Source of the DNA: a virus
Lineage: Duplodnaviria; Caudoviricetes
IMG/VR virus record: IMGVR_UViG_3300025679_000005
Direction: 5' to 3' (one strand)
DNA: 64,000 bases
The notes beneath the pieces are model-generated. The model searched no databases and was not told the DNA's origin. It was given only the letters and a program-made list of their open reading frames with translations. Shown here one piece after another: positions 24 to 46,533 of the stretch. A program made the position numbers and the translations under genes. Every line of letters starts with the position of its first letter. Position 1 is the first letter of the stretch.

Positions 24-563
24 GTGTGCTGGTGTGGTAGGCTCATTGATCAGGGAACTTCTAGTACTTGCGCGACTTGTCGAAGTATCGGCCGCAAAGC
101 CGATAAGATTAGGTATGCCAAGTCTTTAGAGCGTCATGCCAAGGAAGGGATTTGCGTCAAACGCTGTGATAACCTGGCAATGCCTGATCGGACAGAATGC
201 GAGGAGTGCTGGTGGAAGGTAATGGCACAGCACCATCTTCTGTCGGCCTCAAGGGCGACAGACCTTCAGAGCCTGTTGAAATCTCAGGAGGGCCGCTGTG
301 CCCTAACAGGGTTTCCTTTGGAGCCCCCATTCATAGAGTTGGATCACATCGTGCCCTTGGGTCAAGGAGGGAGCACGGAGCTGGAAAACATGCAGCTAAT
401 GTTACCCATAGTGAATCGAATAAAAGCGCATTTGCGTCAAGACGAGCTGTTTGCTTTTTGCCGATTGGTGGTAGCTCACAACGAGGGCAAAGTGAGTGAA
501 GAGGCTGCTCTCAGAGGGGCCGCTAAACAACCTAATGTAGGTTGTAAGACAGGTCGAAAATGA
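24..563 (+). CDS. HNH endonuclease with N-terminal CxxC motifs
   Basis: RCALTG...ELDHIVPLGQGGSTELENMQ HNH-type motif; several CxxC pairs. Confidence 0.8.
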   Translation: MCWCGRLIDQGTSSTCATCRSIGRKADKIRYAKSLERHAKEGICVKRCDNLAMPDRTECEECWWKVMAQHHLLSASRATDLQSLLKSQEGRCALTGFPLEPPFIELDHIVPLGQGGSTELENMQLMLPIVNRIKAHLRQDELFAFCRLVVAHNEGKVSEEAALRGAAKQPNVGCKTGRK

Positions 564-1045
564 GATGCGATCGATGCCCTAACGAGGCCGCCCCTGAACG
601 CTCTATGTGCATACTCTGCCTAGCGAGGACTAACGAGAGAGTGAAGGAAAGGTACAGGCTGAATCGAGAGGCCAGAGCCGCTAACCCTGATGCTGAACAT
701 CCCTGTGCGAGATGCTTCAAACAGATGGCCGTACAGGGTCGGATTGAGTGTCTTGATTGTTGGTGGAAAGCAACTGCCAACAGGTACTTCCAATCAGTCA
801 AGTTTGCGCCTGGCCTACGAGAAATATGGGAATCTCAAGACTGTCGCTGTGCCCTTACTGGAGTGTCAATTGAGCCACCGAACATGGAACTGGATCACAT
901 CGTTGCCCTAGCCATTGGTGGCTCCAACACCCTCGATAATATGCAGTGGGTGCTGCCTGTGATCAACTCGATGAAGCACACCCTCATGACAGACGAGTTC
1001 GTATCGCTGTGTGCTGTCATCTTGAAGCACAGCCAGAAGTGTTAG
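560..1045 (+). CDS. HNH endonuclease, paralog of upstream gene
   Basis: RCALTG...ELDHIVALAIGGSNTLDNMQ; ATGA overlap with upstream ORF. Confidence 0.8.
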   Translation: MRCDRCPNEAAPERSMCILCLARTNERVKERYRLNREARAANPDAEHPCARCFKQMAVQGRIECLDCWWKATANRYFQSVKFAPGLREIWESQDCRCALTGVSIEPPNMELDHIVALAIGGSNTLDNMQWVLPVINSMKHTLMTDEFVSLCAVILKHSQKC

Positions 1046-15600: not shown

Positions 15601-15842
15601 TTCTTTTTCCGGTGTATGATCAGGGCAGAGGCCGAACCCTAGTCAAGTGCACTTGACTGAACCCGGTTATCTCCCTGGGCGCCCTGCTTCGAAACTGGGG
15701 GCCCAGGACTTTTTTGATCTTCGCCCTTATGTCCCACCGTCGGTCGACCGTATAGATAGGTGTTCGGCTTCTGTTGGCTGGGCCCCTTGGTGGTTCTTGG
15801 GTGATTTCGGTTGCTTGTTTCTTGGTGTTTCTGGTTAGGTTA

Positions 15843-19726: not shown

Positions 19727-21148
19727 TCAGGGAGTCGTATCTTCGGCGTTTGAGGCTGTGCCAGTACTCTTTGCAGAGATTGCCCTGGTAGTAAGCCTAC
19801 GGCTAGAAGCTGCTAGCTCGGTAGTAGACCTTCCTGAGGAACTGTCCCCGGCCCGAAGGGCTAGGTATCGCTGACTCAGGAGGGTTTTCACTTCGGAGGG
19901 ATGATCATAGATCCCAATCTCTTTGTCCTCGGAACGTCCGAGCAGATTGCGACCTCCTACCACATCCGCATGAGAAATCCTGCCGCACCCACGGCATTGA
20001 AACTTGATCCCACTTCTGTTGGATCGTGAAACGTAGCCACAGGATGGGCACATCTGAGAAGTGTATGCCGGATTCACAACAATGACCGGAGCCTTGGTGG
20101 CTAACGACTTGTGCAGAGCCTTATAAGCGAATCGCTTTTGCCCCTTACAACCCCTGAGATCCAAGTCCTCGATGACGAACGCATGTCCTGGGTAGTCTCT
20201 AACGAGCGAGTTGGCAACGAACCCTGTGCTTGTTTTGATGAGACCGCTGAGGTGCTCTTCCAAGCGATCTAGGCGAGGAGAATTGATCCTCAATCCCTGA
20301 CGTTGCCTATTGGCTCTGAGGGTTTTGACCTTGGCATAAAGGGTATCGAACTTGGGCTTCAGATCAGCTCCGTAGATTCGACCGGCCGACGTAGCCGCGA
20401 TCACGTTGAGGCCGACATCCACTCCTACGCGAGGTGCTGACAGGTCAAGCTTAGGCTCCTCAATTAGCTTCTTCTCAAGGACTTCGACTCGCCATCGGCC
20501 CCGGCGGTCTTTGCGGATCATACAGCCATTGACGATCTCGTCAGGGGATTTGACGTGAGGGTTGGCGACGATCGGGACTTGGATCCTACGACCCTTCTTG
20601 AGATTGGAGAAGCCCAGCCACCAGGCACTGATTTTGGTATCATCGATCTTGCGGATGGCACTAGTATGCACCGAAAGGCGTATTCCAATTCGATCAGAGA
20701 TCGTGGGGGTCTTACCTACTAGGTCCTTGTCAAGAAGGAACGACCAGTACTGATCGAGAACTTCCTGAGAGATCAGGTCAGTGGCATGGTCGTAACTGTA
20801 TTTTCCGATAGTGAGAAGGGCGATTTTGGTCGATTCGGTGATCAAGCCCTCCTTAGCCAATCCCTTGATGTGTCGCTTGAGCTTCCTGACGTAGGTGGTT
20901 GTAACCCAAGCTGAAACAATCTCGATGGCATGCTGCTGGCAAGCCATTACAATGTTAGTGGAAAGAACCCTCTCCCTGGGAAAGAACCTGAGAAGTTCTC
21001 CTCTAGGAATCCCCATCCTCATGGACGAGATCATAGCTTCGACGCAAGCCTGGAGATACAGAAGGTATTCTACGTGAAGGGCTTCGAGCGCACGGATCTT
21101 CCCTGGGTTTGCTTGGGGGTGAAAGAAAAGGACTCGTGAGCGTTTCAC
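19727..21148 (-). mobile_element. tnpB: TnpB (RNA-guided RuvC nuclease), no tnpA
   Basis: VGVDVG (RuvC I), FVIEDL (II), VNPAYTSQMCPSCG...CRGCG...ADVVGGRNL (Zn finger + III); right-end hairpin GATACGACTC/GAGTTGTATC at the 3' end. Confidence 0.9.
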
Positions 21149-21218
21149 ACTTAAGTGTAGACAATAAAGGAATTATTGGACTGCACCAGGAAACCTCTGT
21201 TCGGTGTATGAACACTAG

Positions 21219-21905
21219 GTGATCAACTGGTCTGACCTCTCTCCCAAAGAGCTGGCCTCTGCCATGAGGGCACTCAAGCAGAAGATCCTGTACGCTTGGA
21301 GCCAGAACGAGAACGGTTCCTGGTGTCGCCGTTCTGCCTGGGAGTATGACACCGACCGCTACCCTATCCTCACCGTCAATGACGCTGGCTTGTTCAGAGG
21401 GAAGACAGCCAAAGGTGTCGATGAGCCGTACCCTACCTTAGAAGAAGCTAAGGCCTCTTGGGACAAGTACTACCTAGCCGCCGGCTGGCTGCTACTAGCC
21501 GCCGACGATGGCTCAGGAACGCCTCTGCCCCCGCCCCACACTGACTGGCCTTCCTTGACCGGAAGCGAGTTTGCAGGGGCCATTAGGACGATTCCCAAGC
21601 TGATAGCCTACGCCTGGACGATCGAGTACTACCCCTACTCTGATTCACCTGAAACGCCGTCGTGGGTTCGCCATGACTGCGAAGAATACGGCTATGCTCA
21701 AGCCGCCCACATCAATCTCAATGAAGATGGTCTCTACCGTGGGCCTAGCTACGATCCCGCCACGGGATCCGCACATCCGAATTTCGCTGACTTGGATGAC
21801 TGCAAAGCCGCCCACGATCGCTATTTGATCCAAAACGGCTGGATTTTGAACGACGCTGAAGTAAGGCCCGCGTTAGCCCGCCTCATAGAAGGGATCGGTA
21901 TCTGA
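21219..21905 (+). CDS. Hypothetical protein with internal duplication
   Basis: Two copies of W..L...E.A.A.R.....I.YAW...A...D.Y....GW.L; GGTGTA motif upstream. Confidence 0.7.
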   Translation: MINWSDLSPKELASAMRALKQKILYAWSQNENGSWCRRSAWEYDTDRYPILTVNDAGLFRGKTAKGVDEPYPTLEEAKASWDKYYLAAGWLLLAADDGSGTPLPPPHTDWPSLTGSEFAGAIRTIPKLIAYAWTIEYYPYSDSPETPSWVRHDCEEYGYAQAAHINLNEDGLYRGPSYDPATGSAHPNFADLDDCKAAHDRYLIQNGWILNDAEVRPALARLIEGIGI

Positions 21906-22216
21906 TGAACATTGACTGGAATAGCATCGCCGGGCTCATCAAAATAGCCAGGATCTCGCAAATACCTAAGGCCGCTGTCTTCAGTCGCATGAAGGAAGTG
22001 GCCGACCGACGAAAAGGCCTCGACGAAGACCCCGAGGACGCCGATACCAGGCTCCACGGCATCATCGAAGAAGTCTACGCCATCCCCGTGGCGGAACTAT
22101 CCGCGGTCAAGGAGTGGTTCCTCAGGGAGGCCCAGAAGCTGGACCCCGAAAGTGATGACGAAGACGAGGAAGCTGAGACGCTTCTGAATGAACTAGGACG
22201 CCGAGGGGCGAACTAA
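21905..22216 (+). CDS. Hypothetical acidic protein
   Basis: TGATG-coupled ORF. Confidence 0.65.
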   Translation: MNIDWNSIAGLIKIARISQIPKAAVFSRMKEVADRRKGLDEDPEDADTRLHGIIEEVYAIPVAELSAVKEWFLREAQKLDPESDDEDEEAETLLNELGRRGAN

Positions 22217-22240
22217 ATTCTCCGGCCTGGTGTATATGAC

Positions 22241-22276
22241 CCAGCAACACCCGCTCAGGGGTTCCAATACTGTGAC
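22241..22276 (+). CRISPR. Solitary copy of the array-3 repeat behind a phage promoter
   Basis: CCAGCAACACCCGCTCAGGGGTTCCAATACTGTGAC, 33/36 identical to the array-3 repeat; GGTGTATATG at 22229. Confidence 0.85.
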
Positions 22277-22307
22277 CAGATCCCAGAGCTATTGCTCTGC
22301 AAGTTCC

Positions 22308-25300
22308 TCAGTCATCATCATTGATCAGAGCCCACAGCTGCCGACCAATGCTCATCCCCGACAGATGTTGGCTCCCCACACCCGCCGAGGCCAGCATGCT
22401 CTCATTGTCGAGCCCGTCAGTCGATATCGAGATCTCGACTTTACGCATGAGCAACTCGTACATCTGCTCTTGTAGGGTGTCCTTGAAGACAGCGAAGTGG
22501 ATGCGGGTGTCCTTCTTCTGACCAATACGGTCTACTCGACCGACTGCCTGCCGGAACATGATCGGGCTACACATCGGGTTCTCCATCCACAATTCTGTGG
22601 AGAAGTGGACCAACGAATTCAAACCCGTGCTCACGGAGGCGGGGTTGACAATCAATACCCGGGAATTCTTCTTGACTACGTGCTGCTCTATCCACGTTTG
22701 GCGCTTACTCGTGGGGACGCGGTCAGCATAAAGGATCGGGGCCTTCACCCCTAGGCGCTCCTCAATGAGGCGGGCAATCCTAGGAAGCAACGTCGTGTGC
22801 CAAGCAAAGACCATGGCATTGCGACCCTCGGCCAGTTCCGCCTTGAGGGTGTCGAGCATCCACTGCTCCTTGGCAGAGACCTCGGAAGCTGAGAACTGCT
22901 TACCAGTCGCCACGATCCCAGCGCCCACGGACTCGGGATACCGGATCTCGTAGGTCCCGTCATCGTTATTGCCAGTGTCCGCCGTTGATCGATCCAAGTA
23001 GCTGGGCAGCTCTGACAGCTGGCCGAACAGCTTCCCCGACAGGTCCGGATCGAAGCGATCCTTCTTGATCTGATCCCTCAATGAGGCCAGAAGGGATTTG
23101 TAGCTGCCCAGTAGCTCGGAATCAGCTTCCACCACATGCTTCGTGACAGTGCAGGGCGGGATGTCAATGGCTAGGTCTGCCTTGTGCAAGGTCACAGACA
23201 CGGGCAGGAGGTGCCGGAACAAGAACAGGGGGAGAATGCCAGGGGCATCTCCGGCTGTGCGTTCGCTTCGCTGCACACGATCGGACATGGCCCCGAAGGC
23301 TACGACCTCCCCAGACTCCTTATCCTTGTCAGAAATGATTCGCTTCCGGTAGCCGTAGCGGTCAATGAACCGTTGGGCATCTTCCCTGGCGAACTCATGC
23401 CGGAAGTCCGGAGACAGCGCCCACATGTTCGTGTACAAGGACTTCGCGTAGCCGTTCATGACAGAGCCGGTCATGAACAGGGTGGGGATACCAAGGCCGG
23501 TTAGAGAATGGTAGGCTTGCGATTGAGCTGAGTCCGCATTAGCTGCCTCATGGCTTTCGTCTAAGCATATGAAGTCAAACAGATTCGGAGAGTATTTGGC
23601 GATGTGCTTCGCCAACGCCACTCGACGGGGTTCGGGTACCGCCTGGAACAAAGCCTCTCCGCATTCTGGGGTCAAGTAGATCTTACCACAAGCAATAAGC
23701 CCCGTAAGGATGGCCTCAGCAAGGTCTAGACTGTTGGCCTCCTTGGCATCTAGGGTCAAAACCCCGTCAGTCCACTTGAGCATCCCCAAATGGGTGTTGT
23801 GACCGTAGGACCTGGCCGCCTTGTAGTACATGTCCCAGCTCTGCCAATTGCTGGTCTCAAATAGTCCGGTCAGCTCCTTTTGGAGTTCCGTTCCCTCTTC
23901 AAGCAGGTAAACCAGGTTCTTCGCCATGTCCTTGATGTAGTATTCCTGGTGTTGGGACAGGATCCGAACATAGCGAGCAATTCGAGCAGGGTCGTAGGCG
24001 GCCATCAACAGCTTGGCGAACAGCTTGGGCAGCTCACCTTCGTTGGTCGAGTTGAGCATCATCTTGGCGAACACGAGATCGGTCATGTGCTCGACGTTGG
24101 CTGGCTGGAACACCCACTCGGGGCGTTCGTCTTTCGGAACCAGTGCGTTCTTGTCGAGGATCCTGTTCAAGTGCACCGTCCTCAGAATGCCCCGAAGGCG
24201 ATGACTCTCAGGGAGGTGCTCTAGAAGCTGCAAGCCGAACGAGTAGGCGGCTAGGCCCAGATCATCCTTGATCGAAATGTCTCTGTTCTCGCAACGAAGG
24301 CGCTTCTTGACGGCATCTTCCTTGGGCAGCTCACCGCCACACTTCGGGCAGCTCTTGGTAACGGCTTCCCAGCCATGGCCTAGCTTGGCCGTTTCCCGGG
24401 ACAGAATCGCCACCAGAAAGCGTTCCGCTGGAATGTCAGCCAATGCCTCGATGTCTCCAATGTCCTTCAAGACCCGCACCTCAGCGTCAGGAAACGTGGC
24501 CGAGGTCTCATTGGTCCAAGAGGTCAGAAGATGAGGCGGGCAAAGGACAAGCATTCTCTTGGCGATTGTCCTAGCGACCGTTAGTGCCAGGCAGCTCTTA
24601 CCACTGCCGATTTCGCCCAAAAGCTGGGCAGATCGATACTTTCTGTCCTTGGCCTTGTTCCCACCCAAAAGCATCACCAACGCCTTGGCTGAGTGCTCCT
24701 GAGCTTTGAAGAGTTTTCTCGCCGTTGGGGCCAAGGTCACCGAGTCCGCATCCCGCTTGGGATCGTACATGACAGGGCACTGTTGCTGCATAACCCCCAT
24801 GAGGCTAGGCCCGTAGTGCTTGAGCAAGTCCTCAATGGTCATTTTCTCGACATCGAGGACTTTCGACTCCCCACCGGATCCCAGGGTCGTGTACTTTTTG
24901 GTACTCAAGTCCAAGATCGTCGTAATCAGCTTCGGCTGCTGAACCTGAACAACCGAGGTCACATCCCCGTCCTTGTTTTTCTTCTCCTCGACGGTGACGA
25001 ACTCCCGATCGAACACTCCCTTGACCAAGAGGTCGGGGAGGCCTTCGGTTTCTGAAGATACCCGGCGACCATTGAACAGCCCTGAGGCGATCCCCGCGGC
25101 AATGTGGGCGGGCCTAGGGGGCGTAGCCAACTTGTACGTCCGGAACATCAGCTCTTCTACGGGAAGCTCAGGGATGATGTGAGGCACCGGGACGTAAGAG
25201 CCCAGGCGATTGCTTTGGGTCCAAGGACGAACCTTCTTCAATAGCCCAATGCGGTCGAAGGCCCGCATGCCCCAATCGGTCGTGTAGACGTTGCTCTGCG

Positions 25301-25988
25301 GCGGTGTGAAGACGATCTCAGTGGGTTCCCCCAAGATCGGCATGTCCTCAACCGACTCCGCCCAGGCTTCTACTTGGGCGATGATAGCGGGGTCTGGACT
25401 CAGCTGGTCAGTGGTTTTGACCGCGAAGAGAACCACCTGCTTGTAGGCGCCAAAATCCGGATCCGGGAATCGAAAGCAGGCAAGGTCGGTAAAGCCCATG
25501 GCAAGGGCCCTGGCTGACGCCCTGAGAGCGTAGTGAGGCACTACGAAGGCCAGAACCCCTCCGTCGGTCAAAGCTCCTTGGAAGCGGTCTAGGAAGCGTT
25601 GTTCGAGACGGCCGTGGACGTGGTCTAGGTCGTAGGGTGGGTTCAAATACAGGAAGTCGATCCCTGGCTTGTTCCAGACGACCTGGAAGGCGTCCCCTCT
25701 CAGGGCTGACTCGTGACTACGCCAGTGTACTTTCGAGGCCTGGATGTTGACCTTCAACGTGGCGTGACGGGTCTTCTCTAGCTCGCAAGTGTAGAGGGTG
25801 AGAAGGCCCAAGGAGGTGCCGAAAGCGGCATTGACAATCCCTAGGACGGCTTCGCCCTCACCCGCACAGGGATCGGCGACCGTGTAGTTGGTGTGCTCGG
25901 CCGTATCCAGTAACGCGGCAATGGCCGGTATCAGGTGCGGAGGAGTTGGGTAAAATCCGGCTAACGCCTGTGCCTCATTTCTCGCCAT
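22308..25988 (-). CDS. N6-adenine methyltransferase-SNF2-type helicase fusion (1226 aa)
   Basis: DPCAGEG and LYLNPPY MTase motifs; GEIGSGKS, LDESHE, MTGS, QAVGRVDRIGQ helicase motifs. Confidence 0.85.
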   Translation of the reverse strand: MARNEAQALAGFYPTPPHLIPAIAALLDTAEHTNYTVADPCAGEGEAVLGIVNAAFGTSLGLLTLYTCELEKTRHATLKVNIQASKVHWRSHESALRGDAFQVVWNKPGIDFLYLNPPYDLDHVHGRLEQRFLDRFQGALTDGGVLAFVVPHYALRASARALAMGFTDLACFRFPDPDFGAYKQVVLFAVKTTDQLSPDPAIIAQVEAWAESVEDMPILGEPTEIVFTPPQSNVYTTDWGMRAFDRIGLLKKVRPWTQSNRLGSYVPVPHIIPELPVEELMFRTYKLATPPRPAHIAAGIASGLFNGRRVSSETEGLPDLLVKGVFDREFVTVEEKKNKDGDVTSVVQVQQPKLITTILDLSTKKYTTLGSGGESKVLDVEKMTIEDLLKHYGPSLMGVMQQQCPVMYDPKRDADSVTLAPTARKLFKAQEHSAKALVMLLGGNKAKDRKYRSAQLLGEIGSGKSCLALTVARTIAKRMLVLCPPHLLTSWTNETSATFPDAEVRVLKDIGDIEALADIPAERFLVAILSRETAKLGHGWEAVTKSCPKCGGELPKEDAVKKRLRCENRDISIKDDLGLAAYSFGLQLLEHLPESHRLRGILRTVHLNRILDKNALVPKDERPEWVFQPANVEHMTDLVFAKMMLNSTNEGELPKLFAKLLMAAYDPARIARYVRILSQHQEYYIKDMAKNLVYLLEEGTELQKELTGLFETSNWQSWDMYYKAARSYGHNTHLGMLKWTDGVLTLDAKEANSLDLAEAILTGLIACGKIYLTPECGEALFQAVPEPRRVALAKHIAKYSPNLFDFICLDESHEAANADSAQSQAYHSLTGLGIPTLFMTGSVMNGYAKSLYTNMWALSPDFRHEFAREDAQRFIDRYGYRKRIISDKDKESGEVVAFGAMSDRVQRSERTAGDAPGILPLFLFRHLLPVSVTLHKADLAIDIPPCTVTKHVVEADSELLGSYKSLLASLRDQIKKDRFDPDLSGKLFGQLSELPSYLDRSTADTGNNDDGTYEIRYPESVGAGIVATGKQFSASEVSAKEQWMLDTLKAELAEGRNAMVFAWHTTLLPRIARLIEERLGVKAPILYADRVPTSKRQTWIEQHVVKKNSRVLIVNPASVSTGLNSLVHFSTELWMENPMCSPIMFRQAVGRVDRIGQKKDTRIHFAVFKDTLQEQMYELLMRKVEISISTDGLDNESMLASAGVGSQHLSGMSIGRQLWALINDDD

Positions 25989-26006
25989 TTGATGTACCTA
26001 ACGGAT

Positions 26007-30462: not shown

Positions 30463-31677
30463 TCATAAAGACACCCATTCTTCTCTGGACTTCGGCTGAG
30501 AACCTACCTGCCGTAAGGCCTGTAGGTTCTCGTTGACCGCGCTCAAACCGAGCGCTTTAATGTTACACCCCGCATTCTGGTCACGATCCATGACGAGACC
30601 ACACTCGGGGCAATTGTGGATGCGGAACCGTAGTCCCTTGGGGACGACGGTTCCGCACGCATGACACCTCTGTGTAGTTCCTCGTGGATCAACTCCTACC
30701 GCTAACTTACCAGCTTCTTCCGCTTTGCATTTTAGGCAGTGGATTGTAATTGACCAGGACGCATCCGAGATTGATTTCGCTAGATTGATCTTCGGCTTCC
30801 CATCTCTGGAAGGACCTCTGGAAGGACCTGAGATCATCTCCTGAATCGAGAGGTCCTCGTAACAGACGATGTCATTCGTTTCAAAGAGGGACTTAGCCAG
30901 CTTCCTAGCGTGATCTAGCCTCTGATTCTTGATGTGAGCGTGAGCCCGCTGGACTAGGGTCTTGGCCCGTCTCCTAGAGGAGCTGCCACGGCGCTTGCGT
31001 TGCATAGCGCGTTGGCGTTGGGCCAAAAGGTCTTGCCCCGCCTTGAAATAACGAGGATTCTCGATCGTTGTTCCGTCATCAAGGGTACCGAAGTGGGTGA
31101 GTCCTAGGTCAATGCCGACGGACTTCGTGGGGTCGATCACGACCTCAGGGGCTACTCCCAAATCGCACTGGAAGATCACAAACCATTTACCGGCTTCTCT
31201 TCTAACTGAGACATCAAGGATCTCTCCTTTATGGGGCCGATATTGGTTGAATTTGACTAGGCCTAGCTTGGGGATCTTGACTCTGGCAGAGGAAACCCTC
31301 TTGATCTTAGGCTCAATTTTCGTAGTAGTCTGAAGAGCAAACGAGTCGTAGCGCTTGTAGCTACGGAACCGCGGGAAGCCAGGGGCTTCGCCCGTCTTCA
31401 CGCGGCGGAAGAATGCCTTGAAGGCATCGTCTAATCGCTTGAGCGGAGATCGAAGGATCGTGGCTGGGATCGCTTCGAAGTCAGGGTCTTGAGATCGAAT
31501 GATGGTCAGGGACTTCTGTTGATCATAGAGAGTCAGACTCTTTTTGAACTTTAGGTAGTGACTTTTCCGCTCTTCCAGGGCGCCGTTGTAGAGGCTATTG
31601 CACATGAAGAGCCAGTTGGCCATTCTGGCCTCCTGGTCCTTCGTGGGATACAGCGGATAACGAAAAGAGCGAATCAT
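30463..31677 (-). mobile_element. tnpB: IS200/IS605-family TnpB, no tnpA
   Basis: N-terminal FRYPLYPTKDQ HTH, SVGIDLGL, CYEDLSI, VDPRGTTQRCHACG...CPECG...DRDQNAG; hairpin TTTCATGGGC/GCCCATGAAA (31703-31735) upstream. Confidence 0.93.
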
Positions 31678-32624: not shown

Positions 32625-32870
32625 ATGGCATTCGTACGTGAGTTCAAAGACACTTTCACCTGTGACAACCCACAGTGAGGCGGTGACAACGGCCGTTTCT
32701 CTGAGGTGGTCGTTCAAAAGACTGAGGACATACTTGACGCCAACGAATCCGTAGGGATTCAAGGACCTCAGCTGCCTAAAGATTGGGGCATCTTCCACTA
32801 TGCCAATGTTCAAGTATATTGGTGCCCCAGCTGTTCTAGGACTCTCGTAGGCAAAGGGAAAACCCCTTGA
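32625..32870 (+). pseudogene. Small Zn-ribbon gene with in-frame TGA at an expected Cys
   Basis: GGTG-TATAAT 9 nt before ATG; MAFVREFKDTFTCDNPQ*GG...LPKDWG...WCPSC; TGA at 32676-32678; true stop overlaps next start. Confidence 0.65.
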
Positions 32871-33289
32871 AAAAACGTAAGCGTCGATTCTATCCGGGGA
32901 TGCTCGTTCGCATTGCCAAGGACTGCCGCCCAGTCTCAGTATTGGAGCCCCTGAGCGGGCATCCCCTGTCTATACACCGTCCAGAAGGGGCTGCTACAGG
33001 GGCTGAAGCCGTTTACGAAGGGCGGTTCAATTCCAAGACCGGACGACGCTACAAGGGGCCTAGAGGCCTTGGAATGCCCAGACTACGCCTGGAGGATGGT
33101 TCGCACATTTGGGGGTATGAGTGCTACTGGCTGCCCCTGAAAGAAGCCCAGGCCGTCGAAGCCAGTTTGGGCATACACATACCCTCCAGAGAGGCGAAAG
33201 AGTGGGATCGCCTGGTCGACGACCTCCAACGTAGGACTCAGATAGGGGAAACTCCTGAGGCATCCCCTACGGCCACCCTTACGGAGTAG
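32867..33289 (+). CDS. Hypothetical protein containing a degenerate array-3 repeat
   Basis: TTGA-coupled ORF. Confidence 0.6.
   Translation: MKKRKRRFYPGMLVRIAKDCRPVSVLEPLSGHPLSIHRPEGAATGAEAVYEGRFNSKTGRRYKGPRGLGMPRLRLEDGSHIWGYECYWLPLKEAQAVEASLGIHIPSREAKEWDRLVDDLQRRTQIGETPEASPTATLTE
32933..32959 (-). CRISPR. Degenerate solitary array-3 repeat inside a CDS
   Basis: GTCTCAGTATTGGAGCCCCTGAGCGGG, 25/27 identical to array-3 repeat. Confidence 0.7.
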
Positions 33290-33533: not shown

Positions 33534-33862
33534 GTCTCAGTACTGGAACCCCTGAGCGGGTGTTGTTGGAAGGGCTATGGACCAAGTACGTGCTCACAAA
33601 GGTCTCGTCTCAGTACTGGAACCCCTGAGCGGGTGTTGTTGGGGGTTCGCGTGCGGTAAATCCCCTAATGTCCGAGAAGTCTCAGTACTGGAACCCCTGA
33701 GCGGGTGTTGTTGGCCCTGTTACGTCGAGCAGCTCCACCTCGTCGAACAGCAGTCTCAGTACTGGAACCCCTGAGCGGGTGTTGTTGGCAAGGACCGACA
33801 CGCAAACGAGATCGATTCCGTACCCAGTCTCAGTACTGGAACCCCTGAGCGGGTGTTGTTGG
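33534..33862 (-). CRISPR. CRISPR array 3, 5 repeats and 4 spacers, type V-like
   Basis: Repeat CCAACAACACCCGCTCAGGGGTTCCAGTACTGAGAC (minus), CTCAG/CTGAG stem, GAGAC 3' end; spacers 36-38 nt. Confidence 0.97.
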
Positions 33863-33865
33863 AGG

Positions 33866-34423
33866 TCATTGAGCGGCCTCATCACATCCAGTAGTTACAC
33901 CGGACTTTGCGAGCGCCTCGCCAGTCCGTCGACAAATCTCCTTCGAGGCTCCAAAATCCCGATCGTAAGTGCGCCCACAATTAGGACAAGCAAGGATCAG
34001 ACCGTCAAGCTTTCCAGTGGGTTTTATGCAATGGGGGCACACCTGCGACGTTTTGCGAGCGGATACCGCAAAAACCTTGGCACCCGACCGCTCGCAGATC
34101 TGTTTGAGCAGGTAGGGGGCAGAAACATCTCGGTTCTGACGTTTACGCCTAGAACTCTCCGAGGCCGTATCAAGAGCACGCATCTGTGTGCTCTTGAGGT
34201 CCTCTAGGCCGATAGCCACATACATGGCCGCCAGTTTTTTGGCGGCCTTACTGAGAATGTCCAAACGAATATTCTCAATCCGTCGGCGAGCCTTGGCGAT
34301 TTGTTTTTCGGTCAGGTGCTCGTAAGCCACCCAAGAGGCTTCCTCTGTAGTGAGTACTCCCAGTTCGGCCAGATGCCTTCGGTATTGATGCCGATTTCTC
34401 ACAGGAAGGTTGGCGTTTTTCTT
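33866..34423 (-). pseudogene. 5'-truncated TnpB/Cas12-like effector
   Basis: Retains AIGLEDL (RuvC II), SARKTSQVCPHC...CPNCG...DRDFGAS (Zn + RuvC III); no RuvC I or recognition lobe; frame runs into a repeat. Confidence 0.8.
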
Positions 34424-34453
34424 GTCACAGTATTGGAACCCCTGAGCGGGTGT
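34424..34453 (-). CRISPR. Partial array-3 repeat at the truncation point
   Basis: GTCACAGTATTGGAACCCCTGAGCGGGTGT, same variant as the 22241 copy. Confidence 0.85.
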
Positions 34454-34498
34454 AGATCACATAATGTACGTTATCAAGCGTCCAGTCAACCCCATTGA

Positions 34499-34951
34499 TC
34501 ATGCCACGGCGCCACGTTTTTTATTGCGATTGCGCTCGGTCTTGCCAGTGACCTTGGTCACGGTCTTGCCGAAGTTGGCGTTCTTCTGCTCCTTCTCGAT
34601 GCGATTGTCGATGTCCGTGTCATGGCGCTGGGCCATGTCCGTGACGATCCACTCCTCGGCGTTCTCCAGGAGAGTGGAGATGATCAAGGCGAACGGGGTC
34701 TCCAGACCCACATGTACCATCGAGGTGCGGTCCTTGTTGGCCCGAATATGGGGAATGAACTTCTCGATCGGCGTCGGGGAGTTGCGGTCCGTGATGATGC
34801 GGCCGATGCGGAACGAGTACAGGACTTCGGAGCCGCGGGCGGGAGCCGTGCTGATTTCGACTGCGTAGCCCGACTTCTGCTCCTTACAGGTGTGGGTGAC
34901 ATTCCAGACTGGTTTGGCGTGGGTATTGGCTTGGTACGTGTTGTTGGTCAT
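34499..34951 (-). CDS. Hypothetical protein with basic C-terminus
   Basis: 150-aa ORF. Confidence 0.7.
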   Translation of the reverse strand: MTNNTYQANTHAKPVWNVTHTCKEQKSGYAVEISTAPARGSEVLYSFRIGRIITDRNSPTPIEKFIPHIRANKDRTSMVHVGLETPFALIISTLLENAEEWIVTDMAQRHDTDIDNRIEKEQKNANFGKTVTKVTGKTERNRNKKRGAVA

Positions 34952-42570: not shown

Positions 42571-42604
42571 GTGGCTTAAATCGGTGTATCTACTTACACC
42601 GATT

Positions 42605-42666
42605 TCTCGATTGCTCAGTACGCTGAGACTGTGAGCCGCCCTTTTGATTGCTCAGTACGCTGAGAC
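42605..42666 (+). CRISPR. Two-repeat CasPhi mini-array divergent from casPhi, ~12-nt spacer
   Basis: TCTCG-ATTGCTCAGTACGCTGAGAC, TGTGAGCCGCCC, TTTTG-ATTGCTCAGTACGCTGAGAC. Confidence 0.88.
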
Positions 42667-46392: not shown

Positions 46393-46434
46393 GGCCCGAT
46401 CCTACACCGGTTCGCTAGGCTCCAGCTTCTCCTC

Positions 46435-46499
46435 GTCTCAGCGTACTGAGCAATCGAGAGCCTCACTCTACACCGTCTCAGCGTACTGAGCAATCAGCA
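46435..46499 (-). CRISPR. Two-repeat CasPhi mini-array with a 15-nt spacer and own promoter
   Basis: TGCTG-ATTGCTCAGTACGCTGAGAC, GGTGTAGAGTGAGGC, TCTCG-ATTGCTCAGTACGCTGAGAC; TCGGTG-TACTAT immediately upstream. Confidence 0.9.
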
Positions 46500-46533
46500 A
46501 TCACCCATAGTACACCGATAATTTATCTCTTGG

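Follow-up and report, generated by a model that had tools for sequence, protein, structure and literature searches.

Solitary repeat units of viruses were reportedly treated by Faure et al. in 2019. Lone CRISPR repeats with a promoter immediately upstream have been described in viruses, and several of them act as RNA anti-CRISPRs (Racrs), with the Racrs tested belonging to types I-C, I-E, I-F and V-A and type V-M, the Cas12m type, going unmentioned in the main text (Camara-Wilpert et al. 2023, PMC10651486). The SRUFinder criteria set out in the same paper ask for coverage of at least 90% of a known CRISPR repeat, an intergenic position, no repeat of more than 70% identity within 100 bp and no association with cas genes, the units often lying directly downstream of a promoter. 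A second group, CreR/CreA and the crlRNAs, comprises repeat-derived RNAs encoded outside the main array behind a promoter of their own, in mini-arrays that carry a second, degenerate repeat and a guide partly matching a promoter (10.1101/2023.03.03.530964, 10.1101/2024.10.29.618823). Because it binds DNA and blocks transcription without cutting the DNA (PMC10442227), Cas12m would suit regulation in the crlRNA style. The Cas12m2 structure is that of a crRNA-only complex, described with no mention of a tracrRNA, in which the scaffold is ordered from position -29 to -1 and the heteroduplex measures 17 bp (PMC10442227). The V-M locus of a myxophage, encoding MvCas12m, is without recognisable tracrRNA (bioRxiv 10.64898/2026.09.14.751636), and it was this preprint, dated September 2026, that first claimed a phage-borne Cas12m.

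The window, by which we mean the whole 64,000-nt stretch of phage DNA analysed here, contains a lone 36-mer, u1, that reads CCAGCAACACCCGCTCAGGGGTTCCAATACTGTGAC (Table 1). It differs at three positions from each of the five repeats of an array read on the minus strand (33/36, with 36/36 nt covered), and dinucleotide shuffles are expected to yield 0 matches as good, in agreement with the original prediction of a nearly full lone repeat. With its filters switched off, a covariance model built for this family of repeats retrieves only eight copies in the 64-kb window, namely the five array repeats, u1 and two partial copies, u2 and u4 (model extents 32933-32968 and 34424-34459), and the next match scores just 12.9 bits. 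The leader of the array carries the word GGTGTA on the minus strand, on which the repeat ends in ...CUGAGAC, so that the crRNA sense of u1 lies on the plus strand.

Table 1. Coordinates of the solitary repeat unit and of the related features in the 64-kb window
Feature	Position	Strand	Remarks
GGTGTA phage promoter word	22229..22234	+	6 nt upstream of u1; no start codon 7-12 nt downstream
Solitary Cas12m-type repeat u1	22241..22276	+	crRNA sense; A(-4)->U breaks one stem pair
7-nt linker CAGATCC at guide position	22277..22283	+	no match elsewhere in window or in compared loci
Perfect 6-bp hairpin CAGAGC-TATT-GCTCTG	22284..22299	+	no U-run; resembles type I-C repeat hairpin
u2, second promoter-plus-scaffold unit	32933..32978	-	GGTGTA 32978-32973; 27-nt 3' repeat part 32959-32933; stem intact
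Five-repeat Cas12m-type CRISPR array	33534..33862	-	identical 36-nt repeats, four spacers
C-terminal cas12m stump	33866..34420	-	ORF 33866-34402, 178 aa; RuvC-I, WED, REC absent
GGTGTA word in array leader	33896..33901	-	33 nt upstream of first repeat; sets transcribed strand
u4, partial repeat copy	34424..34453	-	30-nt 3' part, abuts cas12m truncation point; no GGTGTA upstream on its strand

The u1 unit fills the 91-nt gap between the stops of two convergent ORFs, 21905-22216 (+) and 22308-25988 (-), with the first stop 24 nt upstream and the second 31 nt downstream of the repeat. The minus-strand gene encodes 1226 aa with helicase and methyltransferase matches and has no relatives in IMG/VR; an overlapping 81-aa plus-strand ORF is antisense to it. 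u1 is counted as intergenic. Two neighbouring small ORFs (228 and 103 aa), of interest since Racrs can lie beside acr genes, are without Pfam match and without meaningful PHROG match, a search of Rfam returns no family for the u1 unit or for the array, and megablast of positions 21000-26000 against GenBank phages gives no match. Local alignment on both strands detects no second repeat, even degenerate, within 150 nt on either side of u1, the alignments being no better than those of shuffles. The closest cognate cas remnant lies 11.6 kb away, and a non-cognate 473-aa TnpB-like gene 1.1 kb away.

With the phage's own array repeat, not the published repeat database, serving as reference for coverage, the claim of a solitary unit agrees with the published sequence criteria: the match is full-length and intergenic, no repeat neighbours it, and a promoter-like signal stands directly upstream. 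On these sequence features u1 is a genuine viral solitary repeat unit of a type V-M repeat. It resembles the viral units and Racrs described earlier (PMC10651486) in this layout and in having no intact cas gene beside it, and by analogy its RNA would be expected to occupy a Cas protein without guiding it. Unlike the Racrs, it is of type V-M, its repeat duplicates that of the array in the phage itself rather than one known from a host, and its own effector is reduced to a stump.

Upstream of u1, the original prediction had read a promoter made of two elements, GGTG and TATATG. A promoter-like word does stand directly upstream, but word statistics identify it as the single word GGTGTA and not a pair, with TATATG (22233-22238) overlapping its end. 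GGTGTA occurs at 52 sites in the window, compared with ~32 for permuted hexamers, and 20 of the 52 are followed at a distance of 7-12 nt by the start codon of an ORF of 50 aa or more (7.6% for permuted hexamers); judged by these counts, it behaves as a promoter word in this phage. The flank score of the u1 site, -0.87, falls within the gene-linked range of 1.15 ± 3.1, the promoter-flank context being average at u1 and good at u2, and a scan for sigma-70 promoters and intrinsic terminators gives nothing at the u1 unit. Since no start codon occurs in the leaderless window behind the GGTGTA of u1, we argue for an RNA product. A further GGTGTA at 15611 (+) has the best flank score in the window (9.06). 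It likewise lacks a start codon in the 7-12 nt range and may be the promoter of another non-coding RNA.

The same word precedes u1 (22229), u2 (32978, minus strand), the array, in its leader, and three CasPhi handle units of this phage (42583, 46474 and 46516). From GGTGTA to the stem CTCAG the distance is 17-25 nt in all five RNA units (u1, u2 and the three CasPhi handle units), which bears out the proposal that u1 is built to the design of the CasPhi mini-units; because this design recurs five times and with two effector families, chance placement of repeat units behind GGTGTA is unlikely. The CasPhi units (42583-42666 and 46410-46518) have in common with u1 the GGTGTA, a stem CUCAG that begins 17-25 nt behind it, a GAC tail and a guide that is very short or absent. 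They differ in occurring in pairs with an intact effector 0-4 kb away, whereas u1 stands alone and belongs to a dead system.

Behind u1, only the 7 nt CAGATCC separate the repeat from a perfect hairpin of about -9 kcal/mol (centroid fold), as the expectation of a very short guide had it. As to the further suggestion that this hairpin could end the RNA, the hairpin is real and perfect but not recognisable as a terminator: there is no U-run on either strand, and it is not called as one. The guide position is occupied by the local 3' end sequence of the neighbouring gene, and no guide-region match of at least 13 nt beyond chance occurs in the 64-kb window or the compared loci. With 7 nt only, where the heteroduplex of Cas12m2 spans 17 bp, u1 would have no usable guide unless the hairpin melts. 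As a repeat-derived RNA unit outside the main array with a promoter-like word of its own, u1 is comparable to CreR/CreA and the crlRNAs; it departs from their mini-arrays in having no second repeat within 150 nt, just 7 nt before the hairpin and no target in the window.

The hairpin also aligns with that of the phage's newest type I-C repeats (CAGAGC-TATT-GCTCTG in u1, CAGAGGC-TATT-GGCTTCTG in the repeats), with a local score of 20 against 9.9 ± 1.9 for shuffles and 0/2000 shuffles as high, a test that overstates the likeness because the arms of a hairpin are not independent. A G.U pair and a bulged G of the I-C hairpin are removed, leaving the stem preserved. In the window it is the sole I-C-like hairpin outside the I-C array and the sole perfect hairpin with a TATT loop, and the 11-nt type I-C handle, GTGAATTGAAAC, is absent behind it. 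That one arm and the loop match by chance is unlikely; the likeness may stem from a common origin or role of the two hairpins, or they may have converged on a stable tetraloop form.

Assignment of the repeat, family 3 of this phage, draws on an intact locus. A gapped pattern on the conserved core retrieved an 80-kb complete phage from IMG/VR, G006, which encodes an intact 605-aa Cas12m (PDB 23vw, E 1.7e-70; Cas12m2, E 2.5e-23) with an array directly behind the gene and a repeat reading GTTGCAATGCCTGCTCAGGGGGCTGTGCCTTGAGAC. This repeat and many variants align ungapped with family 3 over all 36 columns. Helix columns 14-20/28-34 are paired in 95.6% of cells, and one helix pair alternates between GU, GC and AU with no mismatch, 6 of 500 shuffles reaching its covariation score. 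The layout comprises a G:A pair, a stem closing on -3, A(-2), C(-1) and a dispensable 5' end, as for Cas12m2 (PMC10442227). By this repeat-level comparison with an intact phage Cas12m locus, which is new, the family of u1 and the array is type V-M (Cas12m).

With the V-M loci of Cas12m2, MvCas12m and G006, the phage locus has in common a 36-nt repeat ending A-C, a G:A pair with a 5-7-bp stem closing on -3, and an array that follows the effector gene directly and shares its strand; in G006 there is a remote mini-array as well. The differences are that the effector of this phage is beheaded and that u1 has one repeat, not two, with a stem mismatch. G006 itself carries three Cas12m-type arrays in addition to the remote two-repeat mini-array, which sits in an intergenic gap (L014 2026-3016; L017 3307-4326; L018 1925-2033; L019), and one of its arrays has heterogeneous repeats, in which spacers of only 2, 12 and 15 nt are interspersed with others of normal length (33-39 nt).

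Two further viral contigs carry related-looking hairpins. An 87-kb IMG/VR contig (L015, about 250-960, minus strand) has approximately nine hairpin units upstream of a terminase gene, with a common 11-nt loop AGGCYTCRTAT and covarying arms (CTGCAG, CTCAG, CCACAG/CTGCGG); one of these units comes near the variant seen in u2 (23/28). Because its intervening segments resemble each other, this run is not a normal CRISPR array. A 43-kb partial IMG/VR contig (L013, 1725-1751), with no TnpB/Cas12 zinc-finger domain, holds a single intergenic hairpin of Cas12m-type appearance, GCCCGCTCAGGGGCGTAGTGCCTGAGAC, to which the repeat model gives 18 bits (E 0.009) and which may be another solitary unit or a chance match.

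Superposition of the copies within the window shows that u1 and u4 are identical over the whole 30 nt of u4 and inverted relative to each other. The prediction that u1 carries the variant of the copy at 34424 in inverted orientation is thereby confirmed, 30/30 bases being common, both variant positions (CCAATACTGTGAC) included. Both copies have U instead of A at position -4, so that pair 15:33, second in the stem, becomes U.U where A otherwise stands in 23 of 26 family members. One of the five stem pairs of u1 is thus U.U, and all 36 nt of the repeat are kept. u2 and u4 keep just the 27-30-nt scaffold part, a trimming that fits the dispensable 5' 7 nt of the repeat. For a pseudoknot stem S1 (ACCC/GGGU), the single compensatory change among the copies, found in u2, falls short of significance (122/500 shuffles), and the repeat folded on its own does no better than shuffles.

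Two peculiarities of the partial copies concern neighbouring frames. At the edge of u4 (window 34424-34464), the repeat end ...GCGGGTGT plus an A makes a GGTGTA on the plus strand, 9 nt upstream of an ATG. As promoter of the plus-strand ORF at 34464 this word was rejected, that ORF looking in translation like an antisense artefact and the real gene lying on the minus strand at 34499-34951; the GGTGTA there is probably a coincidence. u2 lies antisense within the first 40 codons of ORF 32867-33289 (+) as called from TTG; the convincing part of this protein, which carries a KEWDRLVDDL motif, begins later, and the true start may lie downstream of u2.

The array lies 3 nt downstream of the cas12m stump on the same strand. 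The stump ORF, 33866-34402, encodes the C-terminal third of a TnpB/Cas12-type protein, and the homology of the region to protein P0121 covers residues 388-572, beginning at window position 34420, where it abuts u4; the N-terminal two thirds of cas12m are nowhere in the window. Full-length relatives in a 5.8-billion-protein collection are only P0121 (572 aa, 69-71% identical) and P0122 (567 aa). The P0121-family profile best matches Cas12m structures (UnCas12m4a, E 5e-21; Cas12m 23vw, E 5e-15) and matches the N-terminal part of Cas12m2 with an E of 4e-7. A speculative idea is that cas12m lost its head when a self-targeting solitary-repeat guide lying upstream recombined with the target inside the gene, which would explain a truncation exactly at a repeat.

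Two other genes of the window were considered as cognate effector and rejected. The closest viral relative of the classic 404-aa TnpB (30463-31677) is without an array. The 473-aa TnpB-like gene (19727-21148) has no arrays in four loci and resembles CasPhi/Cas12f, not Cas12m. Encoded on the minus strand, the 473-aa protein has a zinc-finger part 39% identical to this phage's CasPhi, and its family numbers over 500 proteins, many of them encoded by huge phages with contigs of 350-620 kb; the four loci have no conserved neighbours, and the downstream gap of 37 nt leaves almost no space for a guide RNA.

A cognate effector in phage or host had been named as the point on which the prediction would turn. 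In the phage window there is the 178-aa stump, with no intact copy and no other Cas12m, so that within this stretch the result is the one named as refuting the prediction. A scan of one genome per GTDB species, able to detect close matches only, returned no close relative of P0121, no exact copy of the repeat core and no host with a system matching u1. No relative of P0121 from the phage's 464-kb contig was found in the 5.8-billion-protein collection by a word-based search that would miss distant Cas12m, and none occurs in four related phage records; against GenBank phages, P0121 gives only distant TnpB matches. The repeat core has no exact match in IMG/VR, and repeats of the Cas12m type are lacking in three complete huge phages related to this one. 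Two JGI metagenome matches to the repeat core were discarded as chance, lying inside coding sequence.

Our preferred, though tentative, reading is that u1 is a functional or recently functional unit for a Cas12m scaffold RNA, acting on Cas12m in trans or recently orphaned. Judged from start-codon spacing, GGTGTA would start transcription ~9-12 nt downstream, which is 3-6 nt into the u1 repeat, and u2 RNA would by the same spacing begin 2-5 nt upstream of its 27-nt scaffold. The u1 RNA would then start with a complete ~30-nt Cas12m scaffold, with no 5' processing needed. Carrying 7 nt and a stable hairpin at the guide position, it could not offer the ~17-nt guide of Cas12m and would load into the protein and occupy it with no direction to a target, as a crRNA mimic akin to RNA anti-CRISPRs or to non-targeting regulatory crRNA-like RNAs. 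We infer the transcription of u1, its RNA ends, protein binding and inhibitory effect and, with no partner found, any anti-CRISPR or regulatory activity.

Since cas12m is a 178-aa stump, a scaffold RNA from u1 could today act only on the Cas12m of a host or co-infecting element in trans, or else has recently been orphaned. A recent truncation is favoured by the five identical array repeats, the still open frame of the stump and the 30-nt identity of u1 and u4, and decay by the stem mismatch of these two copies at a near-invariant position. Pure inhibition of the Cas12m system is hard to reconcile with the array of this family that the phage retains.

A less probable account makes u1 a non-functional relic, one of the repeat copies scattered by the rearrangements that beheaded cas12m, transcribed at most incidentally as part of the 3' end of the 21219-22216 operon. 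It would fit the truncation of cas12m exactly at the sister copy u4, the common stem-breaking substitution of u1 and u4, the guide region of u1, which is local sequence with no other match, and the absence of Cas12m-type repeats from the three related complete huge phages, which means that the group does not carry the system stably. Mere scattering fits less well with two of the three solitary copies lying equally close behind GGTGTA, the chance being about 10 allowed offsets in 4096 per copy, and with a layout of u1 equal to that of the CasPhi handle units. The array, moreover, still has identical repeats and a leader that retains its GGTGTA, and the identity of u1 and u4 leaves little neutral time elapsed.

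We consider it improbable that u1 RNA serves the phage's other systems, bound by its CasPhi or, through the hairpin, by I-C Cas5/Cascade, as a regulator of or decoy for them. The CasPhi repeat does agree with that of u1 in its stem CUCAG/CUGAG and its AC tail; CAGTA(CG)CTGAGAC is common to the Cas12m-type and CasPhi repeats, a likeness reached by 15 of 2000 shuffles; and the Cas12m-repeat model weakly matches every CasPhi repeat on the crRNA strand, at 6.9 bits. These matches are, however, far below significance (E about 6), and the loops differ, with 11 nt against 4. On the I-C side, the alignment of the hairpin and its uniqueness outside the I-C array speak for such use and the missing handle speaks against it. 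An even more doubtful variant would make the product a chimeric decoy RNA, with a 5' Cas12m scaffold followed 7 nt later by a trimmed I-C repeat hairpin, at the place where a mature I-C crRNA has its Cas5-bound hairpin; if true, a single small RNA could bind, link or block effectors of two unrelated CRISPR types at once.

Comparably doubtful is a role for u1 in an inverted-repeat pair that spans 12.2 kb, with its arms at 22247-22280 and 34420-34453, and that marks or permits inversion of the intervening segment, which holds the helicase-methyltransferase gene, a TnpB element, the array and the cas12m stump. The 34-nt arms are 97% complementary, forming the best-matched inverted pair that involves u1, and both have the same private variant; yet arms of 30-34 nt are short for homologous recombination, the segment is without an associated recombinase, and flipping the segment would not yield an intact cas12m in either orientation, the window being without the N-terminal part. 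Very improbable is that u1, transcribed from the minus strand as 3' UTR of the 1226-aa gene, just past its stop, acts as an anti-repeat (tracrRNA-like) or by antisense pairing with pre-crRNA, for which its 33/36 complementarity to the crRNA-sense repeats would allow, since Cas12m works with crRNA alone and the Cas12m papers cited here describe no tracrRNA (PMC10442227; 10.64898/2026.09.14.751636), the promoter word is on the plus strand, and near-perfect identity and a distance of 11 kb are untypical of tracrRNA genes.

A solitary repeat for Cas12m, a silencing effector that does not cut, is not described in the SRU/Racr and Cas12m literature cited here. In this huge peat phage the Cas12m protein is gone, while guide-RNA parts, apparently promoter-driven, remain. 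If u1 is a mere leftover, it would date the decay of a phage CRISPR system and show repeat copies spreading next to phage promoters. If its RNA is made and binds the Cas12m of a host or rival phage, RNA-based interference with CRISPR would extend to type V-M, and a phage could go on using the RNA half of a system that it has lost.
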